The position numbers and the translations under genes are program-made. The notes below the pieces were generated by a model that was given only the letters and a program-made list of their open reading frames with translations, was not told the origin of the DNA and did not search any database. From positions 1-63,334 of the forward strand of contig DAOUUW010000002.1 of the NCBI GenBank assembly GCA_030667965.1: a stretch of 63,334 nt of DNA, written 5' to 3'. Below, piece after piece: positions 13,186 through 44,985 of this stretch; positions within the stretch are counted from its first letter, which is position 1; the number at the start of each line of letters is the position of its first letter. This DNA is from Deltaproteobacteria bacterium (lineage in GTDB: Bacteria; Desulfobacterota; Desulfobulbia; Desulfobulbales; SURF-16).

Positions 13186-13236
13186 TATTTATCTCCTATT
13201 AATAAGCATATATAAAAAATTTCAATAGCCCTATGG

Positions 13237-15441: not shown

Positions 15442-15478
15442 TGTATTTGCTCCTTCTCAGATTATCTAAAATACGGTC

Positions 15479-18157: not shown

Positions 18158-18220
18158 TCGGTTCTATCCTTATAAATTGTATCTTTTATCTTTGAGGGCA
18201 AAAGTGCTTAGTTCAATGGC

Positions 18221-21346: not shown

Positions 21347-23563
21347 CTATCGACCTCTATTTTCAGCCAAGGTGACAATAATTTCATTGGCCTGCCCCAG
21401 GCGCGTTACAAGAGTTTGGAAAAAATGCTTCGCAACATTAGGATGTTTTTCAATAATCTCCATAATCTTGTCACCGGGAAAACGCTTAATGGTCGATCGG
21501 CCCTTGGAAAGAATGGAAGCGGACCTGGGCTCCCCGGATATGGCCGACATCTCACCGAAATACTCGTACGGCTCGGTAATTTCAGCTATTTTCTTACCGT
21601 CTTTAACCACCATCACCCCACCCTGAATCAACTGAAAAAAATCAATATCCTTGTTGCCCTGACGGATGATGACATCGCCGTCTTCATATTTTTTCACATC
21701 AGGATTAACAAGGTAGGCAGGGAGGCTTTCCTCGGTAACAACCGTTCTCCTGAAAACTTCCTCAAGGCTGGTTACTCCCTGAATGGCCTTTCGAATAGCG
21801 GCATTGCGCAGGGGAACCATCCCCTCCTGGATCGCCACCTTACGCAGCTGATCTTCGGGCACTTCGGCACTGATAGCTTTTGCCACCTCATCGGTCACTT
21901 CCATCAATTCAAAAAAGCCAAGCCTGCCCTTATAGCCGCCACCGCGGCATACAAGACACCCCTTCGGGCCATAGAGCTTGAGGCCTTCAATCTGGGCCTC
22001 ACTAAAGCCGTAACTGAGCAAATCCTGTGCCCCGGGGACAGGAACCTCCATCTTGCATTCGGGGCATAACCTCCTCCCGAGTCTTTGTGATTGAATCATT
22101 GTCACCGCCGAGGCCAGCATAAATGACGGAATGCCGATGTCAATAAGACGGCCGATGGTGGCCGGACAGTCATTGGTATGCAGGGTGGAAAAAACCAGAT
22201 GACCGGTCATGGCGGCCTTGATGGCAATTTCCGCTGTTTCCATGTCACGAATCTCACCAACCATGATGATATCAGGATCCTGACGCAAAAAGGCCTTCAG
22301 GGCGGCGGCAAAGGTCATGCCCACCTCCTGGTGCACATTAACCTGGTTGATCCCCTTGAAGTTGAACTCAACAGGGTCTTCAGCAGTTAATATCTTTGTG
22401 TCCTCCTTGTTGAGCGAATTAAGCGCTGAATAAAGGGTTACCGTTTTACCGCTGCCGGTGGGACCGGTGACCAGCACAAGCCCCTGGGGCATATCCAGAC
22501 TTCGCTGCAGGGCCGCATATGTTTCAGGCTCAAAACCGAGCTTGGTCAAATCAACATTAAGGGAGGCCTTATCGAGAATACGCAGAACAATACTTTCACC
22601 AAACAGGGTGGGCAGGCTTGAAACACGGAAATCAACAACCTTGTTTCTGCCGATACGCATCTTTATCCTGCCGTCCTGGGGTACGCGCCTTTCTGTGATA
22701 TCAAGACTTGCCAGAATTTTGATCCTGGAGTTCAGAGCATTTTTGATGCTCAAAGGCAGGTTCATCGATTTATAAAGAGAACCATCAAGACGGTAGCGTA
22801 CCTGCAGAGTCTTTTCATAAGGTTCTATATGGATATCACTGACACCATCCCTCACTGCCTTTATAAGGATACCATTAACCAGTTTGATGATCGGCGCATC
22901 CGAGGCGGAAAACTGCTCCGGTCCATCGAAGTCATCATCCTCGATGGCCATATCTTCAGCAGCCTCGGAAGCAAGGGAGCCGAAATCGTCAATACTGGTG
23001 ACCTCTTCTTCTTCTTCCTCAATATCCTCGTCGACGCCAATAAGCTCGAGGTAATCCTCTTCGCTTATTGTATAATATTTCTTATAGGCCTCATGAATAT
23101 CCCGCTCCGTGGAAACACAGACGGACAAAACCCTTTTGACTTCACTCTGCAACTCTTCAACCGCACTGGTATCAGTGGGTTCAGCCATGGTTATCTGTAG
23201 GGTATTGCCAGTCATGCGCAAAGGGAGCGCACAATATTTTTTTACAATTTCAAAGGGAATAATCTTGAAAACTTCAGGATTGGGCGGTTCTTTTTTAATG
23301 TCAACCGAAGGGAAATTATGGATACGGCTGAGCACATTGAGAATAGTGGACTCTTCAATGAACCCAAGCTTGATAAGGATACTGCCCAGACGCTGGCCTG
23401 ATTTTTTCTGAATGGCCAATGCCTCGTCAAGCTGCCTGGTCAGGATATGCCCTTCCTTCCTGAGAACCTCGCCGATCTTGAGCTTACCCGCTCCGGACTG
23501 GTCTTTAACGGTTGACCTGAGGGCGGATTTTTTATTCTGCATTTTTTGCGCTGGAAAAGCCAT
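21347..23563 (-). CDS. GspE/PilB-family secretion ATPase with N-terminal MshEN-like domain and C-terminal cyclic-nucleotide-binding domain
   Basis: Walker A is VLVTGPTGSGKT, with the GspE core and a tetracysteine motif (CPECK...CLVC). The N-terminus has two RLGxxLLxxGxIxxxxLxxxLxxQ-like repeats (KIGEVLRKEGHILTRQLDEALAIQ, RLGSILIKLGFIEESTILNVLSRI). The C-terminal ~115 aa carry FGEMSAISGEPRSASI, a cNMP phosphate-binding cassette. Confidence 0.85.
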   Translation of the reverse strand: MAFPAQKMQNKKSALRSTVKDQSGAGKLKIGEVLRKEGHILTRQLDEALAIQKKSGQRLGSILIKLGFIEESTILNVLSRIHNFPSVDIKKEPPNPEVFKIIPFEIVKKYCALPLRMTGNTLQITMAEPTDTSAVEELQSEVKRVLSVCVSTERDIHEAYKKYYTISEEDYLELIGVDEDIEEEEEEVTSIDDFGSLASEAAEDMAIEDDDFDGPEQFSASDAPIIKLVNGILIKAVRDGVSDIHIEPYEKTLQVRYRLDGSLYKSMNLPLSIKNALNSRIKILASLDITERRVPQDGRIKMRIGRNKVVDFRVSSLPTLFGESIVLRILDKASLNVDLTKLGFEPETYAALQRSLDMPQGLVLVTGPTGSGKTVTLYSALNSLNKEDTKILTAEDPVEFNFKGINQVNVHQEVGMTFAAALKAFLRQDPDIIMVGEIRDMETAEIAIKAAMTGHLVFSTLHTNDCPATIGRLIDIGIPSFMLASAVTMIQSQRLGRRLCPECKMEVPVPGAQDLLSYGFSEAQIEGLKLYGPKGCLVCRGGGYKGRLGFFELMEVTDEVAKAISAEVPEDQLRKVAIQEGMVPLRNAAIRKAIQGVTSLEEVFRRTVVTEESLPAYLVNPDVKKYEDGDVIIRQGNKDIDFFQLIQGGVMVVKDGKKIAEITEPYEYFGEMSAISGEPRSASILSKGRSTIKRFPGDKIMEIIEKHPNVAKHFFQTLVTRLGQANEIIVTLAENRGR

Positions 23564-23779: not shown

Positions 23780-25543
23780 CTAGAAGACGCCTTTCACCTT
23801 ACCGGTTTCAACATCAACGTCTATGCGGCGATAGGCGGGATCGGATGCTGTACCCGGCATGAGGCTGATGGCACCAGCAACCGGGACAACAAAACCTGCA
23901 CCTTTGTAGGTGAGGATATCACTTATAGGTAAAGTCCAACCTTTAGGCACACCTTTCAATTTAGGATCATGGGACAGAGAAAGATGTGTTTTAACCATAC
24001 AGGTTGAAAGCTCATTGATCTCAGGATCAGCCTTAAGACGATCAAGTTTTTGCTTTGCTTCCAGAGTATAACTAACGCCGTCCGCACCATAAACTTCCTT
24101 GGCAATAAGCTCAATACGATCATCAAGCGGAGTATCAAGCTCATAGAGAAATTTAAAGTCATTATCTTCCTCACAGGCATCAACAACGGCATCAGCAAAC
24201 TCAAGAGCACCCTCTCCACCATGCTCCCAATGACGAGAAAGAGCAACACGAGCACCAGCAGATTCACCAAGACGACGAACTGCGGCGATCTCCGCATCGG
24301 TATCAGTGTAGAATGCGTTAATACAAACAACAGGATTAATACCCGCCTTCTTAACGGTCTCAATGTGGTGAATAAGGTTTTTACACCCTTCTTCAACCCA
24401 GCCCACATTCTCGCCGTTATACTCATCCGGCATTGGCTTACCAGGTACTGGAATTGGAGCCCCACCGTGGCATTTTAATGCGCGGATAGTGGCAACTACC
24501 ACTGCACAGTTAGGCTTGAGTTTACTGTAGCGACATTTGAGGTTCCAAAACTTCTCAAAACCAATATCAGCACCAAAACCACTCTCTGTAACGTTGTAGT
24601 CAGCAATTTTAAGACCAACACGGTCAGCAATAACGGAAGACTGACCAATGGCGATGTTGGCAAAAGGTCCGGCATGAACAAGAACCGGCTGACCTTCAAT
24701 AGTTTGCATAAGGTTTGGGTTAAGGGCCTCAACCATCCAGGCAGTCATGGCACCATCAACTTCAAGATCAGCAGTTGTTATTGGTCGATCCTGCTTGTCA
24801 TAAGCAACAACGATTTTCCCAATACGCTCACGCATATCTTTAAGATCAGAGGCAATGGAAAGGATAGCCATGATCTCGGAACTTACCGCAATGGCAAATT
24901 TGGACTGCATGGTGAAACCGTCCATTTTACCGCCGATACCGATAGTAATATTTCTCAGGGCCTGGGCGCAGAAATCGATAATCCAACCGAATTCCACTTT
25001 TTTAGGATGAATATCAAGACGCTTGAGATTCCTTTGGGCCAGCTGCGCATCTGTATAATTTGCCTCATGCTGCATACGCGAGGTCAACGCAACCATACCG
25101 AGGTTATGGGCATTCATGATGGCGTTGATGTCGCCGGTCAGACCCAGAGAGAAAGGAGTAAGCGGAATACACTGGGCAAGTCCACCGCCTGCGGCGCTTC
25201 CCTTGATATTCATGGTGGGGCCGCCGGAAGGCTGACGTATGGCGCCGACCACGCTTTTATTCCTCTTACCGAGACCCTGGACAAGACCCATGGCGCAGGT
25301 GCTTTTCCCTTCTCCCAGCGGTGTAGGAGTAATGGCTGTAACATCAACATACTTGCCGTCAGGCCTGTCTTTCAGACGATTGAGGATTTTACGGTAATCG
25401 AGCTTGGCAACATAATGACCATGGGGAAGCAATTCTTCCTTTTCAAGGCCAAGCTTCTCACCCAGCTCGTACACCGTTTTCATGTTTTTTTCCGCATCTT
25501 CAGCGATTTCCCAATCAGCGTGCTTGGTTGGATCAAGAACCAT
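23780..25543 (-). CDS. fhs: formate--tetrahydrofolate ligase
   Basis: The [11 protein letters not shown]-loop and full-length (587 aa) collinear FTHFS-like sequence. Confidence 0.95.
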
Positions 25544-30870: not shown

Positions 30871-31060
30871 TTAGACAGGATCAACAAGATAGACATCAAT
30901 GTCATTAACTTAAGCTATCAATTTATTTTTCCCCTCACCTAAATCCTCCCGGAGTCTCTCTCCGGTCGCTTACCTCCCAAAGGGGCGAGGATTTTAAAGG
31001 ATGGCTTAAGTTAATGACATTGAGATAGACATGATAAAAAAATCCAGTTAATCCTGTCTA
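30871..31060. repeat. 190-bp nested palindromic (MITE/REP-like) element
   Basis: Outer arms are TTAGACAGGATCAAC..AGATAGACATCAATGTCATTAACTTAAGC and GCTTAAGTTAATGACATTGAGATAGACATGAT..TTAATCCTGTCTAA. Inner palindromes are AAATCCTC/GAGGATTT and CCGGAG-tctct-CTCCGG. Confidence 0.75.
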
Positions 31061-31128
31061 AAAAAAAACAAAAAATGGGAATTCCTATGCTTTTGAATTA
31101 TGGAAAGGGTCTGCATCTGCAAAGGTGT

Positions 31129-31173
31129 TTGCAAAAATGTTAGTCTCCTTTAAAGCAGATTGCAGTTCCGCAA
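31129..31173 (+). promoter_or_regulatory. upstream activator sites for promoter P1 (two 14-mers)
   Basis: TTGCAAAAATGTTA lies at 31129-31142 and TTGCAGTTCCGCAA at 31160-31173. These are 125 and 94 nt upstream of the promoter GG. Confidence 0.65.
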
Positions 31174-31252
31174 TTGCATGAACGTCCTCAATCGGACACC
31201 AAAAGAAAGCAACCATCCGATATTTAAAGAAAAAAAGCACACACCATCTTTC

Positions 31253-31268
31253 TGGCATGCAAAATGCT
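31253..31268 (+). promoter_or_regulatory. sigma54 -24/-12 promoter P1 (upstream of EBP paralog 1)
   Basis: TGGCATGCAAAATGCT, with GG-N10-GC spacing exact. Confidence 0.7.
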
Positions 31269-31417
31269 AATTATTTAGGAAAAACCCGTTTTCTCCAGTG
31301 AACAGGTGTCAATATGAATCGCCCCGGCAGCTCTCTTTTATTTTTACCGCCCCGTAACCTTGTATGGCAGGATAATGTTTTCAAAATGAAGAATAATAAA
31401 ACCGGAAAGACATAACT

Positions 31418-32872
31418 GTGATCACGAAAAAAACAACACGCCAGGACAGACATGCCCGCCCCGTTTCTTTCGTAACTCCTGCAGATACAACTGCTGTACC
31501 AGACCAGCCAAAGGACGATTTTCGTCAAATCTCAACAGAAACTATCCTTGAAAGTATTTCCTACGGTGTTTTTACCATTGATATGGATTGGCGAATCACC
31601 TCTTTCAATAAAACCGCGGAAGAATTGACCGGCATAAACCGCCTGAACGCTATTGGACGCCGTTGTACTGATATTTTCCGATCCAACATGTGCGGCAAAG
31701 ACTGCGCCATCAAGCAAACATTGGCAACACATACCCCCATTATTGACCGCACCGTTTTTATTCGCAACACAGAGGAGAGACAGATCCCTGTTTCCGTTTC
31801 AACGTCTGTTCTGCATAACAACCAAAATGAAGTTATTGGTGCTGCTCAAATTTTTCGGAACCTGCAGTATTCTGTAAAACTGACAGGCAAAGAAACCAGA
31901 CAAATACACGTCAGTGAGTTGATAACCAGGAACAAGAACATGGGGAGAATTATCAGAATTCTTCCCCAGATTGCTGCCAGCGAATGCCCGGTCCTTATTG
32001 AAGGTGAAAACGGAACAGGCAAAGAATTGCTGGCACGTCTCATCCATACCCTCAGCTGCCGCAACAACAAACCATTTATTTCTATTGACTGCGGAGCTCT
32101 TGCACAGCACCTGCTCGAGACGGAATTATTCGGCAGCGACCCAGAGATACTTACCTGTTCCTGCAAGGTCAGGCCGTGCTGCTTTGAGCGAGCTGAAGGA
32201 AGCACTCTTCATCTTAACGGAATAAACACTCTCAGCCTGCCTGTCCAGGCGCGGCTCTTACAAATTTTACATGAAAAAACCTGCGAACCATACTGCAACG
32301 CAAGTCCTATGCGCACAGATATACGGATGATTAGCTCAAGCACCCGCCGTGTTTCTTCACTTATAAATGAAGGAACATTCCTGCAAAACCTGTACTACCG
32401 GATCAATATTATAAAACTTACTCTTCCGCCTTTACGTAACCGCAAAGAAGATCTCCCAATGCTGATTGATCATTTCATTTCCCAATGCAACCTGTCACAG
32501 AACAAATCCGTCAAGGGCGTCAGTCATGAAACCATGGATCTGTTAATGAGATATGATTTTCCAGACAACATCAGCGAGCTGAAAAACATAATAGAAAATG
32601 CTTTTTTACTGTGCTCCGAAGACCATATAATTCCCGCAAATATTTCAGTAAAACCAAGGAAGAGCACTTTTGTCAAGTCCCAGCCCCTGGCCATGGGAAT
32701 GGCTGTTCAGGCCGTTGAGGCCCAGGCCATCATCGCCGCACTGAAACGAAATAATTACAATAGAAAAGCCGCAGCGCATGAGCTTGGTATTCACAAAAGT
32801 ACGTTTTTCCGCAAAATCAAACATCTCGGCATATCATTGCCACAGGTAAACGACCGCTTCCAAAATTCATAA
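31418..32872 (+). CDS. PAS-domain sigma54 enhancer-binding-protein homolog, paralog 1 (degenerate AAA+ motifs), Fis-type HTH
   Basis: Walker A is LIEGENGTGKE. The AAA+ core is collinear with the NtrC family, and the C-terminal HTH is AAAHELGIHKSTFFRKIKHLGI. It has GAFTGA->EILTCS, Walker B LFLDE->LHLNG, FREDL->FLQNL and GNVRELEN->DNISELKN. GTG start. Confidence 0.85.
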   Translation: MITKKTTRQDRHARPVSFVTPADTTAVPDQPKDDFRQISTETILESISYGVFTIDMDWRITSFNKTAEELTGINRLNAIGRRCTDIFRSNMCGKDCAIKQTLATHTPIIDRTVFIRNTEERQIPVSVSTSVLHNNQNEVIGAAQIFRNLQYSVKLTGKETRQIHVSELITRNKNMGRIIRILPQIAASECPVLIEGENGTGKELLARLIHTLSCRNNKPFISIDCGALAQHLLETELFGSDPEILTCSCKVRPCCFERAEGSTLHLNGINTLSLPVQARLLQILHEKTCEPYCNASPMRTDIRMISSSTRRVSSLINEGTFLQNLYYRINIIKLTLPPLRNRKEDLPMLIDHFISQCNLSQNKSVKGVSHETMDLLMRYDFPDNISELKNIIENAFLLCSEDHIIPANISVKPRKSTFVKSQPLAMGMAVQAVEAQAIIAALKRNNYNRKAAAHELGIHKSTFFRKIKHLGISLPQVNDRFQNS

Positions 32873-32972
32873 GCCGGAACATTCAACTCGACAAAGCCGG
32901 TGCAGGAAAATAAAGCCAGAGACAGCATAAACACCTTTCATAGTTCTAACTCAAATCCCAAACAGCGATTCA

Positions 32973-33018
32973 TTGCATTCATGCAAACATGGTAATATAC
33001 TTTATTGCAGGTACGCAA
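32973..33018 (+). promoter_or_regulatory. upstream activator sites for promoter P2
   Basis: TTGCATTCATGCAA lies at 32973-32986 and TTGCAGGTACGCAA at 33005-33018. These are 122 and 90 nt upstream of the GG. Confidence 0.65.
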
Positions 33019-33093
33019 AGTCCATGAAGAGTCGCAATTATGCCCAAAGAATCAACATTTTGATATCACTACAAAAAAATCGTGTCGCATTTA

Positions 33094-33109
33094 TGGCACA
33101 CTACATGCA
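33094..33109 (+). promoter_or_regulatory. sigma54 -24/-12 promoter P2 (upstream of 4-TM protein 1)
   Basis: TGGCACACTACATGCA, with GG-N10-GC exact. Confidence 0.75.
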
Positions 33110-33268
33110 GATACCATAATTAACTTCTTTCTTGACCTCCCCCACCTAAGGTTATGTAAGAAGTTGCAAAAAAAATGAACAAAGGAACCCCCATGAATTA
33201 TTAATTTTATTTCTGGGAGTTACTTAATAACTAAAAACCTCTTTAAATGAAAAATCTGGAGGATTATC

Positions 33269-33682
33269 ATGAGCGAACTATTAATTCTATTGGCTATAAT
33301 TCCCCTGGCCTGTTACCAGCTGACCAAAAATTTCAAAACTAAGCATAGATGGGCGATGATTGGAGTATCCAGCGGCCTGGTTATTGCTCCAATCAGTTTT
33401 GGACTGCTTCAGTTTACCTACGTGCCTATTATTGGTAAAATCATGGGATTCATTGGTCTTATTTTCAACCTGACTCATGGTTCAGTGGGTTATTTCTGTC
33501 TGGTAGGCAGCGGAGTAATTGACCCGGGCGCCGTGCTTTCAGCCTCACAACTTGTTATGATTAACGTTGTGAATGCGGCCCTTTTTTCCTTCGCTTACGG
33601 AATGATCGGATACTCCGTTGACAAGAAGATCGAAGAGACAAGCCCTCAACCTCAACCGAGCTACAGCACTGTAAAACATTAA
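33269..33682 (+). CDS. small 4-TM membrane protein of unknown function, paralog 1
   Basis: 137 aa with four hydrophobic segments. A good RBS (GGAGGA) lies 6 nt upstream. It has very long identical stretches with ORF 36446..36853 (e.g. VIAPISFGLLQFTYVPIIGK.MGFIGLIFNLTHGSVGYFCLVGSG). Confidence 0.8.
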   Translation: MSELLILLAIIPLACYQLTKNFKTKHRWAMIGVSSGLVIAPISFGLLQFTYVPIIGKIMGFIGLIFNLTHGSVGYFCLVGSGVIDPGAVLSASQLVMINVVNAALFSFAYGMIGYSVDKKIEETSPQPQPSYSTVKH

Positions 33683-33706
33683 TCTTCCCAAATGAGAAAT
33701 AATTAC

Positions 33707-33743
33707 AAGCAAGTACCGTTGAGACGGTACTTGCTTTTTTTTT
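33707..33743 (+). terminator. Rho-independent terminator after 4-TM gene 1
   Basis: AAGCAAGTACCGT-TGAG-ACGGTACTTGCTT followed by a T run. Confidence 0.85.
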
Positions 33744-33819
33744 CTACGACAATGACCGCTAACATGCCCCTTGAGGGTGAACATCTGGAGCACTGCTGAA
33801 CAGTTACAGACCGAGTTTT

Positions 33820-34136
33820 TCATAACTTTTTTACACATGCTGAATAGTTACAAAATTTGGAGTGATCCCCAAAATATTCGTTCAATTTTTTCAAGGCAAC
33901 CTTTGGAGCTTTTCTTTTCCCTGCCGGTTTTTCCCTAACAAGATCGGCAATTCCACTAATGTTGCCATTCCATAGCAGTTCCCGAACCTGTGTGGAGAGC
34001 TTTCGGCTTTCCTTGTCTGACATTTCAGGGCATCAGAGATTAATTTTTTCACAATGCTGATATTCTGATTTGCGTGTGTATAGTCCAAAATCCGTTTTGT
34101 ATCACTACTTTTTTGTATTGCACCCCTTTTGAGCAA
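33820..34136 (-). pseudogene. frameshifted C-terminal remnant of a transposase (ISKra4/ISLre2-like, tentative)
   Basis: Two overlapping minus-strand ORFs read ..ILDYTHANQNISIVKKLISDALK.. and ..STQVRELLWNGNISGIADLV...ALKKLNEYFGDHSKFCNY. The pattern resembles the LDxxHAxEH...L.YL..N..RM.Y tail of that family. No intact transposase gene is present. Confidence 0.35.
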
Positions 34137-34267: not shown

Positions 34268-34312
34268 TTGCAAAAATGTAAATGCAGCACCTGACGGATT
34301 GCAGTTCCGCAA
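34268..34312 (+). promoter_or_regulatory. upstream activator sites for promoter P3
   Basis: TTGCAAAAATGTAA lies at 34268-34281 and TTGCAGTTCCGCAA at 34299-34312, the latter identical to the P1 proximal site. These are 127 and 96 nt upstream of the GG. Confidence 0.65.
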
Positions 34313-34393
34313 TCATGCGCAGTTCCGTTTCTCCCTCTCCTGTGTCAACCAACTTATTGATATCTAAAGACAAAAAAAACAAGCGTAGATTTC

Positions 34394-34409
34394 TGGCACA
34401 CAAAATGCT
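34394..34409 (+). promoter_or_regulatory. sigma54 -24/-12 promoter P3 (upstream of EBP paralog 2)
   Basis: TGGCACACAAAATGCT, with GG-N10-GC exact. The -12 region is part of a 2 x 20-bp tandem duplication (34400-34439). Confidence 0.7.
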
Positions 34410-34685
34410 TTTTACACGAACAAAATGCTTTTTACACGAGTAAACTGCTGGGGTAAATATCCCAGAATAAAGGGATAATATCACGTTTGCTCGGCTAACT
34501 AATCTTTTTTTCCGTCATTGTAGGGCAGCACCTGAGAACAGCCTCTTGAATTTTATTAACCCCAAAAGACTGAAATTTAATGCAACTCAGGTTTTCCAAT
34601 AAGTTAACAAACAGACGACCTCAGCTGGAGATGACGAGACTGGTAATCCTCTCAAGAGAAACAAAGCCCGCAAAAGAGCTTATAC

Positions 34686-36155
34686 GTGAGTGCTAAAAAA
34701 AAAAGGTATTTGGAAAAGGGGAAATCATCCGCCACCTCTGTTGTGTCTGCCGACAACGTTGCAAACGTGAAACAAACATGTCAATTCCGGCAAATTTCAA
34801 CAGACTTAATTATGGAAAGCATTTCCTACGGAATTTTTTCAGTAGATTTGGATTGGAGAATCACGTCTTTCAACAGGACGGCGGAAAAAATCACCGGGAT
34901 TAGCCGCCTGAATGCAATTGGCCGACCCTGTTCAAGTATCTTTCTTTCAAATATGTGCGGAAAGGATTGTGCGGTGCAACAAACATTGTCAACAAAATCT
35001 GCCGTTCTCAACAGGACAGCTTTAATTACCGACTCTCAGGGACGACAAATCCCTATTAGTATTTCAACATCACTTTTGCGTAACTGTAATAACAAAATCA
35101 TAGGATCAGCACAAATTTTCCGAGATATCAGTCAGTCAGCATTTCCCCCAGGTATTGAATCCAGGCAGATACACTTAACAGAATTGGTGAGCAGAAACAA
35201 AATAATGGGGAAAATCATCAAAATACTTCCCCAGATTGCAGCCAGTGAAAGCACTGTCCTCATTGAAGGAGAAAATGGAACCGGCAAAGAAGCGCTGGCA
35301 CACCTTATCCACACCTTCAGCTGTCGCAACAATAAACCCTTTGTGAGCATAGACTGTGGAGCTCTGCCTCCGCACTTGCTTGCGACGGAGTTATACGGCA
35401 ATGAAGACGAGTTCCTCACCTGTTCCAGCAAAGCCAGACCGAGCTGTTTTGACAGGGCTGAAGGAAGCACTCTTTTTCTCGACGAAATAAATAAAATAAG
35501 CTTGCCCGTACAGGAACGACTTCTCAGGATTTTACAGAAGAAAACCTGTGAACCACGTGGCAGCACCAATTCCATGCATACTGATATCCGTGTCATTACT
35601 TCTAGTTCCGATCAACTTTCTTCACTCGTCAAGGAAGGGGCATTTCTGCAAAATCTTTATTATCAGGTCAATATTATCCAACTGCATCTTCCTTCCCTGC
35701 GGGACCGTAAAGAAGATCTTCCCCTGTTAATAGATCATTTTGTCTTCCGGTGGAACAGAATGAAAGGCAAAACCGTTAAAGGCATCAGTCATGAAACAAT
35801 GGATCTGCTCATGAATTATGACTTTCCCGGCAATATCAGTGAACTGAACAAAGTAATAGAACATGCCTTTGCCCTATGCGACGAAGACTACATTCAAACT
35901 TCGCATCTGCCGGAGAAAATAAAACAAGAGGCGCGGATAAAGTCCGATCCTGTGGGAATAGAAACCGCTGTCCAGGCCGTTGAGGCCCAGGCCATTATTG
36001 CGGCACTTAAACGAAATAATTTCAACAGAAAGGCGGCTGCTCTCGACCTGGGCATCCACAAAAGCACCTTTTTCCGCAAAATAAAACATCTGGGCATTGT
36101 TCTGCCGCAGGTTGACGGACGTTTCCGTCAACCTGTAAACGGCAACAACAAATAA
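34686..36155 (+). CDS. PAS-domain sigma54 enhancer-binding-protein homolog, paralog 2 (GAFTGA degenerate, Walker B intact), Fis-type HTH
   Basis: Walker A is LIEGENGTGKE and Walker B is TLFLDEIN. It has GAFTGA->EFLTCS, FLQNLYYQVNI and FPGNISELNK. The HTH is AAALDLGIHKSTFFRKIKHLGI. GTG start. Confidence 0.85.
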   Translation: MSAKKKRYLEKGKSSATSVVSADNVANVKQTCQFRQISTDLIMESISYGIFSVDLDWRITSFNRTAEKITGISRLNAIGRPCSSIFLSNMCGKDCAVQQTLSTKSAVLNRTALITDSQGRQIPISISTSLLRNCNNKIIGSAQIFRDISQSAFPPGIESRQIHLTELVSRNKIMGKIIKILPQIAASESTVLIEGENGTGKEALAHLIHTFSCRNNKPFVSIDCGALPPHLLATELYGNEDEFLTCSSKARPSCFDRAEGSTLFLDEINKISLPVQERLLRILQKKTCEPRGSTNSMHTDIRVITSSSDQLSSLVKEGAFLQNLYYQVNIIQLHLPSLRDRKEDLPLLIDHFVFRWNRMKGKTVKGISHETMDLLMNYDFPGNISELNKVIEHAFALCDEDYIQTSHLPEKIKQEARIKSDPVGIETAVQAVEAQAIIAALKRNNFNRKAAALDLGIHKSTFFRKIKHLGIVLPQVDGRFRQPVNGNNK

Positions 36156-36214
36156 GATTAACAAAAATAAGATTAACAACCGGATCGCGCAGCTGCAACG
36201 GATTGAAGAGGATA

Positions 36215-36258
36215 TTGCAAACATGCAATATCTAAATTGCATGTTTGCACCCACGCAA
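36215..36258 (+). promoter_or_regulatory. upstream activator sites for promoter P4
   Basis: TTGCAAACATGCAA lies at 36215-36228 and TTGCACCCACGCAA at 36245-36258. An overlapping TTGCATGTTTGCAC lies at 36237-36250. The first two are 122 and 92 nt upstream of the GG. Confidence 0.65.
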
Positions 36259-36335
36259 ACAAACAAAGAGTCGCAGCAGCACCATGTGACACCTAACGAC
36301 CTGACATAACTTAATAAAAAAATGAGTCGCTCTTA

Positions 36336-36351
36336 TGGCACACTCCATGCA
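36336..36351 (+). promoter_or_regulatory. sigma54 -24/-12 promoter P4 (upstream of 4-TM protein 2)
   Basis: TGGCACACTCCATGCA, with GG-N10-GC exact. Confidence 0.75.
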
Positions 36352-36445: not shown

Positions 36446-36853
36446 ATGAGCGAACTACTAATTCTTTTAGCGATCATACCTATAGCCTGTTATCAGTTAA
36501 CCAAAACTTTCTCTACTCGGCATCGGTGGATGTTATGCGGTGTTACCACCGGTCTGGTTATCGCCCCAATCAGTTTTGGCCTGCTTCAATTCACCTATGT
36601 ACCGATAATTGGTAAGGTCATGGGATTCATAGGTCTCATTTTCAACCTGACTCATGGTTCGGTGGGTTATTTCTGTCTGGTAGGAAGCGGAATACTTGAT
36701 CCGGGCGTCTTGATTTCAGCCTCACAACTTGTCATGATTAACGTTGTTAATGGGGTCCTTTTTTCCTTCGCTTACGGCATGATCGGATACTCCATTGACA
36801 GGAAGATCGAGGAGACAATCCCTACACGGAGCTACAGCGCTATTAAGCACTAA
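36446..36853 (+). CDS. small 4-TM membrane protein of unknown function, paralog 2
   Basis: 135 aa, collinear with ORF 33269..33682, with RBS GGAGGA. Confidence 0.8.
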   Translation: MSELLILLAIIPIACYQLTKTFSTRHRWMLCGVTTGLVIAPISFGLLQFTYVPIIGKVMGFIGLIFNLTHGSVGYFCLVGSGILDPGVLISASQLVMINVVNGVLFSFAYGMIGYSIDRKIEETIPTRSYSAIKH

Positions 36854-36949: not shown

Positions 36950-37183
36950 ATGATCAGCACGACGAATACAAAGACAAAAAACGATTCAGCAACCTATAAC
37001 ACCACTTCCGGCAATGCCGATAATATAGCTGACAATGTTAACAACGTGACATTTATCATTTTGATATGTCTGGCCGGTATTATTGGCTTATGGGGTTTTT
37101 TAAGTCTCATAGCCGGACTGGTATACAGTGGAGGAATACTGGATCTTGCTTCGGAATGGTTAGGAGCCGTGATAGGTCTGTAA
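36950..37183 (+). CDS. 77-aa single-pass membrane protein, unknown function
   Basis: I prefer the internal ATG at 36950 to the track start at 36893, which lies inside the terminator hairpin. An Asn/Thr-rich polar N-terminus is followed by one TM (FIILICLAGIIGLWGFLSLIAGLV). A strong terminator follows. Confidence 0.45.
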   Translation: MISTTNTKTKNDSATYNTTSGNADNIADNVNNVTFIILICLAGIIGLWGFLSLIAGLVYSGGILDLASEWLGAVIGL

Positions 37184-37406: not shown

Positions 37407-37460
37407 ATGCAAACATGCAAACAGACTAAATTGTAGAGTTGCAGTCATGCAACTCTACAA
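37407..37460 (+). promoter_or_regulatory. upstream activator sites for promoter P5, proximal site embedded in a perfect 30-bp palindrome
   Basis: ATGCAAACATGCAA lies at 37407-37420 and TTGCAGTCATGCAA at 37439-37452. The latter sits inside TTGTAGAGTTGCA-GTCA-TGCAACTCTACAA (37431-37460). The sites are 125 and 93 nt upstream of the GG. Confidence 0.65.
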
Positions 37461-37530
37461 AAAGGCCATAGTCGCCAACGTAATAACATAACTATTTGAT
37501 ATAATAACAAAAAAAATTAAGAAATCCCCA

Positions 37531-37546
37531 TGGCACATAAGATGCA
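37531..37546 (+). promoter_or_regulatory. sigma54 -24/-12 promoter P5 (upstream of cytochrome operon)
   Basis: TGGCACATAAGATGCA, with GG-N10-GC exact. Confidence 0.75.
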
Positions 37547-37681: not shown

Positions 37682-38803
37682 ATGAAAAAAATGACCAGGT
37701 TAACAAAATGTTATGGCTTATTTTTTCTTTTTCTATGCTTCCTGTGGCCATCCGCAGGTTTGGCGATAGAAAACTCGGAATGTATGGATTGCCACAGCGA
37801 TGAGAGCCTCACCAAGGAATGCACGGACAACATATTGCAAACCAGCATTACAGAATCGCTTTATGTTGATGAAGACAAATTCAACCACTCGGTCCACAAT
37901 ATCAACGGCATAACCTGCATTGATTGCCATACCGACATTGAGGAGCTCAACTGGGACGAGGAACTGCCGCACAAGATGTACCTTGAACCGGTCGTCTGCA
38001 CCACATGCCATGAAGAGGAAGGAGAAGCCTACAAGAAAAGCGTTCATATGGAAATTCTCAAAAAGGGCATAACAATGCGCTGCTATGCCTGTCATGGCTA
38101 CCATTATGTTGAATATTCGGAAACGGCAACAGTTGCAGAACGGGGAAACAATTACTGTCTGAAATGCCATAACCCCTATCAGTACCACGAGTGGCTGCCG
38201 GCCAAAGAAGCACATTTTTCCATGGTTGAATGTGTTGTCTGCCATTCTCCAGAAGTACCGAATAAGATCCATCTGAACTTCATTGATCTGGTAAGTAACA
38301 AGCTTTACACCAGCAACGAAATCCTCGATGCACTGGGCGTTGATTACGACGAATTCATGCCTCTGCTTGACACAAACAAAGACGGCATCATTAATTCCTC
38401 TGAACTTGAGAATCTCGCTCTCATGCTCAGACTAAAAAATATTCATGCTGTTTTCCATGTGGAACTCCTGGCAGAGCTGCTACCAATTGCCCATGAGGTA
38501 AAAAGGGGTACGGCAGAACAAGACTGCGTGAAATGTCATTCAGCCAATTCCACTTATTTTGATTCCGTTTCCATTCTCATGACCAGGGATGACGGCACCA
38601 TCGACCGCTATGAAGTGGACAGGGCCGTACTGGAAAGCTACAACCTGAGTCACTTTTACCTGATGTCGGGGACACGGGTGAAACTGCTGGACAAAATAGG
38701 CTTTCTCCTGCTGGCAGGTGGCGCCTGTGGCGCGCTTGGACATTTGACCATCAGAATTTTTACGATCCCGATACGTAGAAAAAGAAAAACTGACAAAAAA
38801 TGA
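37682..38803 (+). CDS. membrane-anchored periplasmic heptaheme c-type cytochrome with an internal EF-hand-like loop
   Basis: It has a signal peptide and seven CxxCH motifs (CMDCH, CIDCH, CTTCH, CYACH, CLKCH, CVVCH, CVKCH). The C-terminal TM is IGFLLLAGGACGALGHLTIRIF. DTNKDGIINSSE matches DxNxDGxIxxxE. Confidence 0.9.
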   Translation: MKKMTRLTKCYGLFFLFLCFLWPSAGLAIENSECMDCHSDESLTKECTDNILQTSITESLYVDEDKFNHSVHNINGITCIDCHTDIEELNWDEELPHKMYLEPVVCTTCHEEEGEAYKKSVHMEILKKGITMRCYACHGYHYVEYSETATVAERGNNYCLKCHNPYQYHEWLPAKEAHFSMVECVVCHSPEVPNKIHLNFIDLVSNKLYTSNEILDALGVDYDEFMPLLDTNKDGIINSSELENLALMLRLKNIHAVFHVELLAELLPIAHEVKRGTAEQDCVKCHSANSTYFDSVSILMTRDDGTIDRYEVDRAVLESYNLSHFYLMSGTRVKLLDKIGFLLLAGGACGALGHLTIRIFTIPIRRKRKTDKK

Positions 38804-38878: not shown

Positions 38879-39496
38879 ATGAATAACGAAAAACGGTTAT
38901 ACGTCCATCCTGGGCCGGTTCGTGTCTGGCACTGGGTAAATGCCTTAGGTTTTGTCATTCTCATTCTCACCGGCTTTCAGATTCGATTTGCGGATATATT
39001 GAATATAATGCCCCTGCAGGATGCCATCACCATACATAACTATGTCGGCTTTACACTCATCGGCAATTACTTTATCTGGCTTATTTACTATCTGAGCACC
39101 GGTAAGATTAAAATATATATCCTGGACGTCCGCACCCTTGTTCCCATGGCTATTAAACAGATGCTGTATTACGGATATGGTATTTTCAGGGGAGATGAAA
39201 ACCCTCACCATATGACCCCGGATAACAAATTTAATGCCCTGCAGCAGCAGGCCTATGCAGCTATCATGCTGATATTTCTGCCGGCCCAGATGCTCTCCGG
39301 TGTCTTTTTATGGAAGGTAAAAGGCTATTCAGACTATATTCACCTGCTCGGAGGAATCAAAACTATAGATACCATCCATGTAATCCTCTTCTTCTTTTTC
39401 GGTTCTTTTGTCATGATCCATTGCTATCTGGCAACATTGGGCCACACACCCCTTGCCCATTTTAAAGCGATGTTCACCGGTTACGAAGACCATTAA
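38879..39496 (+). CDS. dihaem b-type cytochrome, HydC/FdnI/PhsC family (PF01292-like)
   Basis: The N-terminus VHPGPVRVWHWVNALGFVILILTGFQIRF is typical of the family. It has four to five TM segments and four conserved-position His residues. Confidence 0.8.
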   Translation: MNNEKRLYVHPGPVRVWHWVNALGFVILILTGFQIRFADILNIMPLQDAITIHNYVGFTLIGNYFIWLIYYLSTGKIKIYILDVRTLVPMAIKQMLYYGYGIFRGDENPHHMTPDNKFNALQQQAYAAIMLIFLPAQMLSGVFLWKVKGYSDYIHLLGGIKTIDTIHVILFFFFGSFVMIHCYLATLGHTPLAHFKAMFTGYEDH

Positions 39497-39605: not shown

Positions 39606-41258
39606 TTATTTAAACTGGTTCTTCATTTTAACGATGGGCAGGATGATCGTGAAAAGGGCCCCACCCAATGAGCTGTTGCTTGCCTCAATATCTGCGCCAA
39701 GCTTCTGGATAATGCTGTAAGAGATTGCAAGACCAAGCCCTGTACCTTTGCCGGGTTCCTTGGTGGTGAAAAACGGATCAAAAATTTTATCTATTATTTC
39801 GGATTTAATACCAGGTCCGTTATCTTCAAATTTGAGCACAATTTGTTCAACAGTGCTTCTGGTTGTAATCTTTACAACTCCGCCATCTCCTGCGGCATCC
39901 ATGCCGTTGTTTGTCAAATTAAGAATGACCTGCAGCAACTTTGAGGCGTCGGTCATTGTGGTTGGCAGATCTTTTTGCAGATCTTTTTCAATGCTAATTC
40001 TGCTGTGTTTAGCGTCGGTTTGGAGAAAAGAAATTGCCTCTTCCACCACGTCATTCATATTCACGGCTTCCTTTTCAGATTGCATTTTTCGGGAAAATCC
40101 CAACAATCTGTGGGTAACGCTACTTGCCCTTTTCACGTAGTGGCGTATCTTTTTCAGGGACTCCCTGTATTCTTCAGCATTTTTAACATTCAAAGAATCC
40201 TCTTCACTCATCAGATCTTCAATCCAGCCGACCTGGTCGGTAATCAGCTGCAGAGGATTATTCACTTCATGGGCAACGCCACCTGCCAGTCTTCCCAGGG
40301 AAGCCATTTTATCAACTTGCAGCATATGGCTGTCCAGTGCTGCCTTCTCACGATCAGCTGCCTCCATGCCTTTCATCATCCAACGCATCATTAAATTCGA
40401 TATGAGAACAATGATCCATGAAGCAATAAAAATTGAAACCAGCACCATATTGCGGCCACTGGAGAACATGTTAATATCGCTGGTTGATTTGACTTTAACA
40501 ACAAGAAGCCATCCAACGTCTCTAATCCAGCTTGTCACATATAGATGACCTTTAATTTGTTTTACTTCGGTCCCCTCATGAGAATAAACAAGTTCCTTTT
40601 CTTCCTCAGCCAGTGCTACTTGCCCAAATCGGCTGGGCGTCTGAAATTTGCCCTTGTAATTGACAATAAAGGCATCACCGGCGTCTCCTATCTGGGCGCT
40701 TCGTACGAGACCGTTTAAAATCTCAGAATTTATTGTGCTGCGTAACACCCATTTTTTCAAAGGACCGGCAACTGCCACCACGATATGGGGCAATCCACGA
40801 TAACCGGATGAAATATCGCTTATATGACTGCCACTAATCATTACTTCTTGAAACCACTCGGTATCTGCATAATTTTTGCCAACAAGTTTTTGCTCATAAG
40901 GACCGACATATGCTACAAGATCTCCTGAAGCATTAAGCACGCCCAGATCAACAATACCCACATCTCCCAGCGACATGAATACCTTCTCCAGGTCATCCTG
41001 ACTGGTTAAATCATTACAATTGCAAAGTTGAATCAGCTGTTCCAGTAACCCTTTTTGTCCCTTAAGAAAAAAAGAAATGAGCTCCTTTCTGTTTTCCACC
41101 GTTCTTTTCAATCCGACGGCAGTGTTTTCCACATAAGATTTTTCATAAAAAGTTGAGGAGCTCCAACTGATCAGGTACAGAGGGATAATTGACACAAGTA
41201 TCAATATGATTGAAAAATTCCTCCACAACCTCTTATAATAAGTAATGTTCTTCTGCAT
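39606..41258 (-). CDS. Cache-domain sensor histidine kinase, paralog HK1
   Basis: Two TM segments flank a periplasmic Cache-like domain. The H-box is [10 protein letters not shown]. HATPase N and G boxes are [15 protein letters not shown] and GKGTGLGL. Confidence 0.9.
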
Positions 41259-41605: not shown

Positions 41606-42103
41606 TCAGTTTTTGCTAACTCTGAAAGATTCCTGGTCAATGTCGTGCTTTTTTATTTTGTCATATAGAGATTTCCGGGAAATCCCCTGGGAATTATACA
41701 CTGCAGTGATTCTGCCTTTATGAATTTGCAGCGCCGCCTGGATATGCTCCTTTTCCGCTTTTTCAACCACATGTTTTAACAGCACTTTACGTTCAACCGA
41801 ACTTGTGACAGCATCTGCATCATCGTCAACATTAAAAGAGGAATTGCCGAAAATACAAAGTCGGCGGACATGATTTTTTAATTCCCTTACATTACCGGGC
41901 CACACTTGCTCCAGCATATGGTCTATTGTGACCTTATCGAAGGGTTTCACCTCCCGCTTGCTGTCACGGCAATACTCTGCTCTGAAATATTCAGCCAAAA
42001 GCAGAATGTCTGATTTTCGTGAACGTAAAGGCGGCACCTCTATCGGCAGCACATTCAAACGATAAAATAAATCCTCCCGAAAATGCCCTTTCTCAATCGT
42101 CAA
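41606..42103 (-). pseudogene. C-terminal fragment of a canonical sigma54 enhancer-binding protein, 5'-truncated
   Basis: It begins inside the AAA+ domain at GHFREDLFYRLNV, then WPGNVRELKN and a Fis-type HTH. There is no Walker A/B or N-terminal domain. The upstream sequence is an IS256 remnant. Confidence 0.75.
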
Positions 42104-42226
42104 TGTTAGTGTATCATTCTTTCTGCAATTTGGATTTGGCCAGGAGGAGGTGAATCCAAAAAAGGTTGAAAAAGGTGGGTCAATTCACATCCTCTAAATT
42201 TTTTCCACGCCAGGAAAAGGAGGAGC

Positions 42227-42590
42227 TTGATAATGACCCACCAACCGGAACCTACCATAATTGATAAAGTAATTGAAACCATTATTGCCAACGGCATTGA
42301 CGGATTAGGGGAGGCTTTCACTTTACTGTTCAACGAAGCCATGAAAATTGAGCGATCCAAGGTATTACGCGCTGCCCCATGGGAACGAAACGAGGAGCGA
42401 CTGGGACACGCCAACGGCTATAAACCAAAATCCATTAATAGTCGTCTTGGTAAACTGCATTTACAAATTCCACAAGTACGTGGAGATATTGAATTCTATC
42501 CATCATCTTTGGAAAAAGGATTGCGTAGTGAACGTGCGCTGAAGAAAGTGGCCATGGCCGAGATGTACATACAAGGCGGCTCAACCGACA
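42227..42590 (+). pseudogene. IS256-family (Mutator-type) transposase, N-terminal fragment only
   Basis: The typical IS256 N-terminal third is present: RLGHANGYKPKSINSRLGKLHLQIPQVRG..FYPSSLEKGLRSERAL...MAEMYIQG. Similarity is lost after about residue 120 and no DDE domain is present. Confidence 0.75.
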
Positions 42591-42915
42591 AGGCTCCATC
42601 GGAGTGTTATTCTTGCCTGAGCTACATAGCTCAGGGGCAACATCACCGAAGGCTTGTCATTGACGGTCGTAGTCGAACCAAGTTACTTCGGATGTGCCAA
42701 TAAGATGAATTAGTTTTCAACTTTTACAGAATAAATGTTTCTTTATCAAAATTTTTTCATATTAATCTTATGGCAGTCAGCAACGATCGATTAATTGCCG
42801 GCCATAAAACCATGATTGATTCATGGGGTATTAATGATGTCACACCTACTTCGATATCTATAAAGCCTTTTATAAACCGTATGAAAACTCTGCTTTCATA
42901 AAATCAAGCACTGCA

Positions 42916-44562: not shown

Positions 44563-44610
44563 TCAAGCAGAAATCCGGACCATAAAAAACCTATTAAGTT
44601 GGTGACAATA

Positions 44611-44985
44611 ATGAATGATTTCAAAGTGTTAGTTGTCGACGACGAAAAAGACTTTCTGGAAATGACCGTTAAAAGGCTAAGCAAAAGAGGGATTGACTGT
44701 CAGGGAGTTCAAAGCGGTGAAAAAGCTGTTGAAAAGATGAAAAACTATCACTGCGACGTGGTGCTTCTGGACGTAAAAATGAAGGGCATGTCCGGCATTG
44801 AAACTTTGCGCGAGATAAAACGGAGCAACCCCCTTGTGGAAGTAATCATGCTAACAGGTCATGCATCTGTGGAATCGGGAATAGAGGGTATGAAGCTCGG
44901 GGCCTTTGATTACCTTATGAAACCAATGGAATTCGAACCGCTTCTTGAAAAACTTCAGGAAGCTTACGAGAAAAAAAATTCATGA
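44611..44985 (+). CDS. single-domain response regulator (REC only)
   Basis: MNDFKVLVVDDE...VLLDVKMKGMSG...MLTGH...KP. I prefer the ATG at 44611 to the TTG at 44599. Confidence 0.85.
   Translation: MNDFKVLVVDDEKDFLEMTVKRLSKRGIDCQGVQSGEKAVEKMKNYHCDVVLLDVKMKGMSGIETLREIKRSNPLVEVIMLTGHASVESGIEGMKLGAFDYLMKPMEFEPLLEKLQEAYEKKNS

Follow-up and report, generated by a model that had tools for sequence, protein, structure and literature searches.

Degenerate relatives of a sigma54 activator may act as sensor-linked enhancer occupants at a cbcBA-like cytochrome locus

Transcription from sigma54 promoters is usually thought to be controlled only by switching ATPase activators, the enhancer-binding proteins (EBPs), on and off. 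A locus in the 63,334-nucleotide contig DAOUUW010000002.1 of a Deltaproteobacteria bacterium (assembly GCA_030667965.1; the whole stretch is called the window below) raises the question of what a protein of this family does once its catalytic residues and its sigma54-contacting loop are gone. The gene at issue, EBP1 (31418..32872, plus strand, GTG start), encodes a 484-amino acid (aa) protein in which a PAS domain with three conserved cysteines (Cys3) is followed by a degenerate AAA+ domain, a lid and an HTH_8 helix-turn-helix (HTH). A preliminary description of this DNA had proposed that the protein is a dead ATPase deficient in sigma54 contact, and that it might work as a DNA-bound anti-activator or as a heteromeric partner of its neighboring paralog, EBP2. 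Here, we show that EBP1 is clearly, by sequence, the descendant of a sigma54 activator that fails both the catalytic and the sigma54-contact tests of the bacterial EBP family, so that its annotation as a sigma54 activator is unwarranted. We propose, at a probability of roughly 55%, that EBP1 and EBP2 are sensor-linked pseudo-EBPs that occupy enhancers and modulate, most likely by antagonism, a separate canonical activator of sigma54 promoters.

We fixed the residue correspondences of EBP1 by phmmer alignments with ZraR (1ojl) and NtrC1, which run with zero gaps across the entire AAA+ core. The Walker A motif GENGTGKE (32003..32026, plus strand, as for all features below unless stated) is intact, and EILTCS stands at the position of GAFTGA in the L1 loop (32144..32161), both exactly as the preliminary description had them. 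Its reading of Walker B as TLHLNG was right about the substitution, in which TLHLNG replaces TLFLDE through the EBP1-specific changes D267N and E268G, but wrong by one codon about the place: the six codons occupy 32204..32221, and 32207-32221 covers only LHLNG. The two remaining motif assignments stood up in the same gapless alignments, with FLQNLYYRINI (32378..32410) aligned to FRQDLYYRLNV and DNISELKN (32564..32587) to GNIRELEN. Of the arginines that correspond to the fingers R162 and R168 and to sensor II R227 of PspF, the first is therefore lost (R322L), the trans finger R328 is kept, and the third is lost (R386S). The damage extends to the switch Asn, which is D224 (ISIDCGAL against the canonical vxvNCaal), to the L2 motif (EPYCN where canonical proteins have EPLGG) and to the sensor I Asn, and a search for a DE pair or a GAFTGA-like loop elsewhere in EBP1 found none. 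Because the protein lacks the Walker B acidic pair, GAFTGA, L2, the switch Asn, the sensor I Asn, the first Arg finger and the sensor II Arg, its sequence indicates that EBP1 cannot play a conventional sigma54-remodelling ATPase role.

These deviations are not alignment noise, since the same positions are 92–100% conserved in 130 canonical homologues. Nor are they assembly errors, because the stretch 31049-33872 is matched base for base by an independent Logan assembly of SRR22839552 (L088; 0 mismatches over 2824 bp). The N-terminus read from the GTG start matches those of the homologues in the alignment. Pfam assigns PAS, Sigma54_activat, AAA_lid_14 and HTH_8 domains to EBP1, confirming the Fis-type HTH that had been predicted (32711..32821), which is near-invariant in the degenerate clade described below and in its canonical sister group. 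The PAS motif C83-x8-C92-x3-C96 (31664..31705) retains three cysteines that are invariant in 100 sequences. The Sigma54_activat match (PF00158, residues 168-334, E=2e-43) scores 148.5 bits, compared with 229 for a canonical EBP encoded at 61869-63284 on the minus strand. In an AlphaFold2 model with a mean predicted local distance difference test (pLDDT) score of 80, the tip of L1 falls below 50 (residues 245-249), and the AAA+ domain superposes on FleQ, ZraR, NtrC1, PspF and FlrC with a target-normalised TM-score of ~0.9 and a root-mean-square deviation of ~1.8-2 Å; in this model, the AAA+ fold is intact despite the motif losses. NtrX (PDB 5m7n) is among the best structural matches of the model, and NtrX and VpsR (PDB 7v2b) are among the sequence and structure matches. 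No NCBIfam equivalog was assigned to any protein of the EBP locus; among those considered for EBP1 (PrdR, AtoC, DhaR, NifA, TyrR and others), the best, PrdR, reached 266.9 bits against a cutoff of 795, and the rest were far under theirs.

Next, we asked whether this degeneration is peculiar to EBP1. A homologue search covering 5.8 billion proteins placed EBP1 in a large PAS-AAA+-HTH family from Thermodesulfobacteriota and neighboring phyla, in which the PAS domain carries an invariant C-x8-C-x3-C and nearly all members are canonical (GAFT[GDN]A, DE, FRxDLYYR, GNIRELEN). The degenerate members, namely EBP1, EBP2, P0039, P0042, P0043, P0047, P0098, P0109, P0121, P0122 and the proteins of loci L074 and L075, fell into one clade in a neighbor-joining tree, with P0017 and P0022 of Ca. 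Desulfobia pelagia as their nearest canonical kin. The clade is small and comes from Desulfobulbaceae-like bacteria. Across it, the L1 sequences are mutually unrelated (GAVAGA, RFFAAF, EIPRSL, KSLEGK, IEFPAS, PEISPP, RAPAPS), Walker B appears as DE, QE, EQ, DD, SE, EE or NG, the trans finger is R, Q or H, and the sensor II Arg has been replaced by S, T, C or D in 10 of 11 members. At the level of 50%-identity representatives (82,457 EBP-like proteins, E <1e-30), the entire clade collapses into a single one, EBP2 itself. About 12 of the top 150 representatives (~8%), from other or neighboring lineages, are also without GAFTGA, so loss of this loop is recurrent in the superfamily.

Comparison of 11 degenerate with 130 canonical sequences, at positions at least 90% conserved in the canonical set, located what the clade has kept. 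It retains 12 of 12 such positions in the HTH, 20 of 26 in the lid and 30 of 42 in the PAS domain, and 29 of 78 in the AAA+ alpha/beta subdomain. The sites lost, N224 (switch Asn), 229-259 (L1), 291-293 (L2), N309 (sensor I), R322, R328 and R386, coincide exactly with known functional sites, the roles of which are summarised in PMC7175178; PAS, Walker A, lid and a near-invariant HTH are kept, and the HTH, PAS and lid are conserved throughout a clade that is ~50% diverged. One relative has gone further. In L094 (Desulfobulbaceae metagenome-assembled genome GCA_020444175.1), the orthologous position (8711-9406) encodes a 231-aa PAS(Cys3)-HTH protein from which the entire AAA+ domain has been deleted, with the same sigma54 promoter and ATTGC dyad upstream and the same small transmembrane (TM) protein gene downstream. 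The pseudo-EBP of L092 (Desulfobulbaceae DB1), with a deleted finger region, is an intermediate form. The AAA+-less ortholog of L094 is the strongest evidence that the conserved job of the clade would be sensing and DNA binding, not ATP-driven remodelling.

Is EBP1, then, the dead copy of a live paralog, as the preliminary description had supposed? EBP2 (34686..36155; Pfam and alignment) is 63% identical to EBP1 and is also degenerate: it has EFLTCS for GAFTGA, FLQNLYYQVNI in the finger region (R322L and R328Q, both Arg fingers lost) and GNISELNK for sensor II (R386S). Walker B DE is retained, and the switch Asn (D224), the L2 motif and the sensor I Asn are missing from both paralogs alike. 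The idea that EBP1 decays faster than EBP2 was rejected, since private substitutions relative to the consensus of relatives number 27 in EBP1, including D267N and E268G, and 26 in EBP2, including R328Q. Together with EFLTCS, FLQNLYYQV and GNISELNK, this parity contradicts the picture of a dead partner beside a working one. Between the two genes, dN/dS was 0.14 overall, 0.14 in AAA+, 0.13 in PAS, 0.065 in the lid, 0.056 in the HTH and 0.14 in the L1 region, approximate figures because dS (~1.8) is saturated. These low values by domain indicate purifying selection on both; as far as coding sequence can tell, selection preserves the two copies, and neither can be called a duplicate in decay. What sets the window apart from related loci is a lineage-specific tandem duplication that covers promoter, pseudo-EBP, promoter and small-TM gene; judged from the clade, where the gene is elsewhere single-copy, the degeneracy is older than this duplication and common to its members.

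The question then becomes which promoters such proteins adjoin. The sigma54 -24/-12 consensus TGGCAY-N6-TGCW matches the window five times where 0.76 matches would be expected, always on the plus strand between 31.2 and 37.6 kb (31253, 33094, 34394, 36336, 37531), and they precede EBP1, small-TM gene 1 (TM1), EBP2, small-TM gene 2 (TM2) and the cytochrome operon, respectively. TTGC-N6-GCAA dyads number 10 where 2.1 would be expected, seven of them at a distance of 60-125 bp upstream of one of these promoters; sites matching the consensus of integration host factor (IHF) stand ~42 bp upstream of the -24 element at three promoters. The pseudo-EBP, small-TM and cytochrome promoter classes recur in L001, L002, L074/75, L089, L090, L092 and L094. 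In an alignment of the pseudo-EBP promoter from seven loci (A5), the sequence has diverged except for four islands: TTGCAgAAatg, ATTGCAnTTnnGCAAT, an IHF-like site and TGGCAc-N-AAATGCT. At EBP1, these islands contain a distal, half-conserved enhancer element, TTTGCAAAAATG (31128..31139), the invariant dyad ATTGCAGTTCCGCAAT of the ATTGC-N6-GCAAT type (31159..31174), which is the putative enhancer of the EBP1 promoter (P_ebp1), and the sigma54 motif TGGCATGCAAAATGCT (31253..31268), found by motif scan. The earlier claim that EBP1 stands behind a sigma54 promoter with dyads is thereby supported by a cross-genome footprint.

The other promoters of the locus are built alike. Small-TM gene 1 (P_tm1) has two dyads found by dyad scan, CATTGCATTCATGCAAAC and TATTGCAGGTACGCAAAG, 32 bp apart (32971..33020), as its putative enhancer, an IHF-like site, CAACATTTTGATA, 41 bp upstream of the -24 element (33053..33065), and its sigma54 motif at 33094..33109; the two-dyad arrangement is also present in the same seven sets of related loci. 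Upstream of EBP2 (P_ebp2) are the dyad GATTGCAGTTCCGCAATC (34297..34314), an IHF-like site (34350-34362) and the sigma54 motif (34394..34409). A perfect 20-bp tandem duplication, two copies of ACAAAATGCTTTTTACACGA at 34400-34439, starts inside this -12 element, and the AAATGCT -12 motif thus occurs twice. Small-TM gene 2 (P_tm2) has the dyads TATTGCAAACATGCAATA and GTTTGCACCCACGCAAAC (36213..36260), again a putative enhancer, and a sigma54 motif at 36336..36351. The cytochrome operon (P_cyt) has the dyad AGTTGCAGTCATGCAACT of the GTTGC-N6-GCAAC class (37437..37454), an IHF-like site (37489-37501) and a sigma54 motif at 37531..37546. The dyads thus come in two flavors, (A/T)ATTGC-N6-GCAAT before pseudo-EBP and small-TM genes and GGTTGC-N6-GCAACC before the cytochrome operon, the latter present in all related loci. 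A scan of the locus for the sigma70 consensus gave only 9-10 of 12 matches, near background frequency, and none at the conserved islands. On the basis of the dyad, IHF and -24/-12 islands and of this near-background scan, we assign these, from their sequence, as classical promoters combining an upstream activating sequence (UAS), IHF and sigma54, which need an active EBP.

A candidate for that EBP is present in related genomes. Just downstream of cytochrome b in six loci (L002, L074, L075, L089, L092 and L094, in the last at 14243-15592) lies a canonical EBP, here termed type-2, with Walker A GPSGSGKE, GAFTGA, DE, FRxDLFFR, GNIRELEN and a Cys3 PAS domain of its own. Its HTH differs (LGI[DE]KTTLWRKMKKY), and the L092 protein has an extra C-terminal receiver domain. 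In L077, type-2 is the sole EBP within reach, yet TTGC dyads stand at all promoters, and canonical type-1 loci such as L008 have no type-2 and carry GTCGC-N6-GCGAC-like dyads. From this distribution we infer that type-2 is the ATPase firing these promoters. It is, on these comparisons, also the likely ATPase partner or competitor of the pseudo-EBP, a place that paralog 2 does not fill. Downstream of cytochrome b, the window is rearranged: a histidine kinase, an EBP remnant truncated by an insertion sequence (IS) and a Mutator transposase fragment are found there.

How might a protein of this kind act? The lineage descends from canonical PAS(Cys3)-AAA+-HTH sigma54 activators of a cbcBA-like cytochrome locus. 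The pseudo-EBP has kept the PAS cysteines, the lid, the HTH and a folded AAA+ core in which Walker A is intact and which would serve to bind nucleotide or to hold oligomers together. Through the HTH, it would bind ATTGC-N6-GCAAT dyads at its own promoter and at the small-TM promoter, while its Cys3 PAS domain would sense a signal, probably redox or metal. Because the pseudo-EBP cannot remodel the sigma54 holoenzyme, a separate canonical EBP (type-2, BccR-like) would supply the ATPase, and the pseudo-EBP would modulate that EBP, either by occupying or competing for the enhancer or through non-productive hetero-association via PAS and AAA+, with signal-dependent damping as the result. Antagonism would also feed back negatively on the pseudo-EBP itself, the gene of which has a sigma54 promoter. 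Of the two roles that the preliminary description had offered, the DNA-bound anti-activator is thus plausible and fits the comparative data best, with DNA binding and a negative sign as its predicted parts. More tentatively, EBP relics might have been turned into signal-sensing occupants of sigma54 enhancers, anti-activators or gatekeepers of a cbcBA-like low-potential respiratory module, in a series running from point-degenerate AAA+ domains (EBP1, EBP2) through internal deletions (L092) to AAA+ loss (L094), with a single base flanking the dyad (ATTGC versus GGTTGC) to separate their sites from those of the true activator.

Several observations weigh against our proposal. We found no type-2 EBP in the 63-kb window, nor within 10 kb in L001; when an active partner was sought in the window, the only other full EBP (61869-63284) had a different HTH and no Cys3 PAS domain. 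It is by correlation that we assign ATTGC dyads to the pseudo-EBP and GGTTGC dyads to type-2. Beside the canonical sister group, whose HTH is nearly the same, the dyads are GTCGC-N6-GCGAC-like (L008), so that type-2 could be the owner of every TTGC dyad. Purifying selection still acts on AAA+ in EBP1 and EBP2, L1 region included, which implies that in this lineage some function depends on the AAA+ domain. Both EILTCS and EFLTCS keep the T of GAFTGA, and a Desulfovibrio EBP with GVATGV, DVUA0100, is predicted still to activate (PMC4641369).

The constraint on AAA+ is best explained if the pseudo-EBP is an adaptor or co-activator that sits on ATTGC enhancers and recruits type-2 subunits through its AAA+ or PAS domain into mixed rings, where ATP hydrolysis and sigma54 contact are left to the canonical subunits, so that regulation is positive. 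The pseudo-EBP and small-TM promoters carry solely ATTGC-class dyads at UAS distance in a classical UAS-IHF-sigma54 layout, to which some activator must be brought. In EBP1 and EBP2, selection conserves the AAA+ fold, Walker A and the lid; the Cys3 motif is common to type-2; and hetero-oligomers of paralogous EBPs have been documented for RedR1/RedR2 (PMC10084136) and VnfA/AnfA (PMC9542535). Yet ring mixing through AAA+ is not a general mechanism of a clade that includes the AAA+-less L094 ortholog, and in L077 type-2 alone handles an equivalent promoter set; we regard this explanation as unlikely, if worth keeping in view. A different mixed ring, a form of the paralog partnership raised in the preliminary description, in which EBP2 gives Walker A and B in cis and EBP1 gives the trans finger R328, so that competent ATP sites form at EBP2|EBP1 interfaces, would account for the reciprocal private losses (D267N and E268G with R328 kept in EBP1; DE kept with R328Q in EBP2). 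Such sites would still be crippled, for both proteins are without the sensor II Arg, R322, the switch Asn, the sensor I Asn and L2, and a hetero-ring could not contact sigma54 because EBP2, too, has no GAFTGA. Every other member of the clade occurs as a single copy, with varying mixtures of losses, and the duplication is lineage-specific, each copy having its own promoter and small-TM gene. We consider this arrangement highly unlikely, and the reciprocal losses are, from the shared absence of sensor II, R322, switch Asn, L2 and L1, probably incidental.

The established fate of EBP derivatives without GAFTGA is activation or repression of sigma70-type promoters, with ATP or another nucleotide as an allosteric ligand only, as in TyrR, NtrX, Rhodobacter NtrC, VpsR (PMC6158489) and Caulobacter NtrC (10.1101/2023.06.06.543975). 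NtrX is among the best structural matches, and the dozen or so loop-less representatives in neighboring lineages show that this route is a common one. Every conserved promoter element beside the conserved dyads here, however, is a -24/-12 motif with an IHF-like site, and the sigma70 scan, a computational one, stayed close to background with nothing at the islands, which makes this fate improbable for EBP1. The opposite view, that EBP1 is a genuine sigma54 activator with a non-canonical L1 (E-I/F-L-T-C-S, with the critical Thr kept) and a non-canonical catalytic arrangement, can point to pseudo-EBPs as the sole EBP type adjoining P_ebp and P_tm in the window, to the Thr and the L1 dN/dS of 0.14 in the two paralogs and to DVUA0100 (PMC4641369). 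It is very improbable in light of the missing Walker B acidic residues, L1 and L2 sequences that are unrelated among clade members, the sensor II Arg lost in all but one of them and the existence of the L094 protein. That EBP1 is a functionless duplicate on its way to becoming a pseudogene might be suspected from IS activity on the contig, the truncated EBP remnant (41606-42184) and the lost catalytic residues. This reading is effectively refuted and was rejected: the open reading frame (ORF) is intact with a dN/dS of 0.14, the HTH, PAS and lid are conserved across the clade, the promoter and dyad are footprinted in the seven-locus alignment, and the independent assembly is identical.

If pseudo-EBPs are modulators of a canonical activator, as we favor, the genes beside them are their predicted targets. 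The window, L001, L002, L074/75, L089, L090, L092 and L094 keep the order pseudo-EBP, four-TM protein of 131-140 aa, single-TM protein of ~75 aa, multihaem cytochrome c and Ni_hydr_CYTB cytochrome b. Small four-TM protein 1 (33269..33682; 137 aa, no Pfam match), followed by a terminator (33707-33736), would be a direct target, judging by synteny and promoter; protein 2 (36446..36853; 135 aa) is 81% identical to it. Their family has no Pfam or NCBIfam match, and its 163 clusters, all called hypothetical, are largely Desulfobulbaceae-like, with no Geobacter member found. An alignment of the family (A4) shows that some polar residues inside predicted membrane segments do not vary (N67-L-x-H70-G71, N99, N102, Y110-G111, D118). 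In L093, a small-TM gene with a sigma54 promoter and two dyads has no EBP or cytochromes nearby. The locus continues with a syntenic single-TM protein of ~77 aa (36950..37183), a CbcA-like cytochrome c with a signal peptide, seven CXXCH motifs and a C-terminal TM anchor (37682..38803), and a CbcB-like b-type cytochrome (Ni_hydr_CYTB; 38879..39496), which resembles the thiosulfate-reductase b subunit (NF011582-like) at a score under the curated cutoff. The canonical sister locus of Ca. Desulfobia pelagia (L008:5392-9880) is permuted, running cytochrome c, cytochrome b, two small-TM genes, an 80-aa gene and the EBP, and has upstream GTCGC-N6-GCGAC-like dyads, not TTGC-N6-GCAA, with weaker -24/-12 elements (TGGTCC-N6-TGCT, CGGCAC-N6-TGCT).

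The window contains two further EBP genes. The remnant at 41606-42184 (minus strand) consists of an AAA+ end, lid and yet another HTH and reads FREDLFYRLNV and GNVRELKN, both canonical; adjoining a Mutator-family transposase fragment (42227-42703, plus) and next to a dCache histidine kinase (39606-41258, minus), it looks like an IS-disrupted two-component EBP. The PAS-EBP at 61869-63284 has GAFTGA, both Arg fingers and sensor II, but its Walker B reads FLTEIG (Asp to Thr), a conserved oddity shared with its ortholog in Ca. Desulfobia pelagia (L008, 16623-18110, minus); it adjoins a dCache histidine kinase and a small Nitro_FeMo-Co-like protein. Four paralogous dCache_1-HisKA-HATPase_c kinases are encoded in the window (39606-41258 and 59780-61513, minus; 42916-44562 and 45257-46987, plus), one of them directly followed by a stand-alone receiver protein (44599-44985). 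Two minus-strand ORFs, 9159-11666 and 7530-9146, form one formate dehydrogenase-like protein (7530-11666) with flavin/Fe-S and molybdopterin domains fused; the in-frame TGA between them (9159-9161, context HCARL-TGA-HAPTVA) is typical of a selenocysteine codon. A Wood-Ljungdahl cluster on the minus strand (11830-20212, 23780-25543 and 21347-23563) encodes carbon monoxide dehydrogenase (Prismane family), acetyl-CoA synthase beta, two CdhD-like proteins, one fused to methylenetetrahydrofolate reductase (MTHFR), and formate-tetrahydrofolate ligase, and amid these genes lies a PilB/T2SSE-type ATPase with a C-terminal cyclic-nucleotide-binding domain.

If our proposal is true, an activator-derived enhancer occupant adds a repressor or gatekeeper layer to enhancer-dependent transcription and shows how such a layer evolves from an activator. 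The Cys3 PAS domain and the paired regulators may help Desulfobulbaceae-like bacteria to set respiratory electron routing to redox conditions. In annotation, proteins of this kind routinely receive the label "sigma-54 interacting transcriptional regulator", and regulon reconstructions count them as activators; ~8% of the nearest representatives lack GAFTGA.

Among known systems, the locus most resembles cbcBA of G. sulfurreducens (GSU0597-GSU0593), which has a sigma54 promoter, two small hypothetical proteins, the seven-haem CbcA with a C-terminal membrane anchor and the dihaem, thiosulfate-reductase-like CbcB; its EBP activator is BccR (GSU0598), and a second EBP-like gene, GSU0596, lies inside the operon (bioRxiv 10.1101/2021.04.15.440034). 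The gene content of our locus matches that description, and orthology to CbcA and CbcB is judged by description. Both systems place an EBP-family gene by a sigma54-driven, anchored seven-haem cytochrome c and a cytochrome b, and two EBP classes occur in related loci. BccR, however, is a required activator with a receiver domain and a canonical core, whereas EBP1 has a PAS(Cys3) input and a degenerate core, and the small-TM family of the window is confined to Desulfobulbaceae-like genomes, its likeness to GSU0597 being by description only. In the cable-bacteria literature, we found nothing on sigma54 regulation of such a locus. A similar pairing is known from D. vulgaris, where DVU3142, a single-component EBP, lies by the sigma54-driven multihaem cytochrome c and cytochrome b of ohcBAC (PMC4641369). 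DVU2960 of the same study, a paralog with GAFPGA inside a sigma54 operon under the canonical paralog DVU2956, did not bind the tested UAS (PMC4641369). Like EBP1, it is a crippled paralog inside a regulon, but it has a single substitution and no UAS binding, whereas degeneration in EBP1 is global (L1, L2, sensors, fingers), its HTH is strongly conserved and dyads are footprinted before its own gene.

TyrR, HupR and Rhodobacter NtrC are EBP derivatives without GAFTGA that act at sigma70 promoters. Like these and like NtrX, VpsR and Caulobacter NtrC, EBP1 keeps the EBP architecture, AAA+ fold and HTH and has lost the sigma54-contact loop; derivatives of the TyrR/NtrX/VpsR type are often without ATPase activity and use nucleotide or DNA binding only. 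Unlike them, every conserved promoter in the regulon, that of EBP1 included, is of the UAS-IHF -24/-12 type. The anti-activators of the PspA-PspF, NifL-NifA and HrpV-HrpS pairs are unrelated to EBPs, bind the AAA+ domain and are often encoded inside the regulon. The role suggested here would be analogous in function, with negative modulation and feedback, except that the proposed antagonist is an EBP relic acting from enhancer DNA. Tandem or co-regulated EBP paralogs, as in the window, are also found in HrpR/HrpS, RedR1/RedR2 and VnfA/AnfA, where hetero-oligomerisation shapes sigma54 output; in RedR1/RedR2 (PMC10084136) and VnfA/AnfA (PMC9542535), the interacting partners are both active. In all three pairs, both members keep GAFTGA and the catalytic residues, and neither paralog of the window does. 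EBPs without GAFTGA are thus already well known, and DVU2960 is one described parallel for a crippled paralog in a sigma54 regulon. What is new here is global degeneration with a near-invariant HTH, at a locus where the protein's own promoter and that of its predicted target are classical sigma54 enhancer promoters and where a natural AAA+-less ortholog exists.

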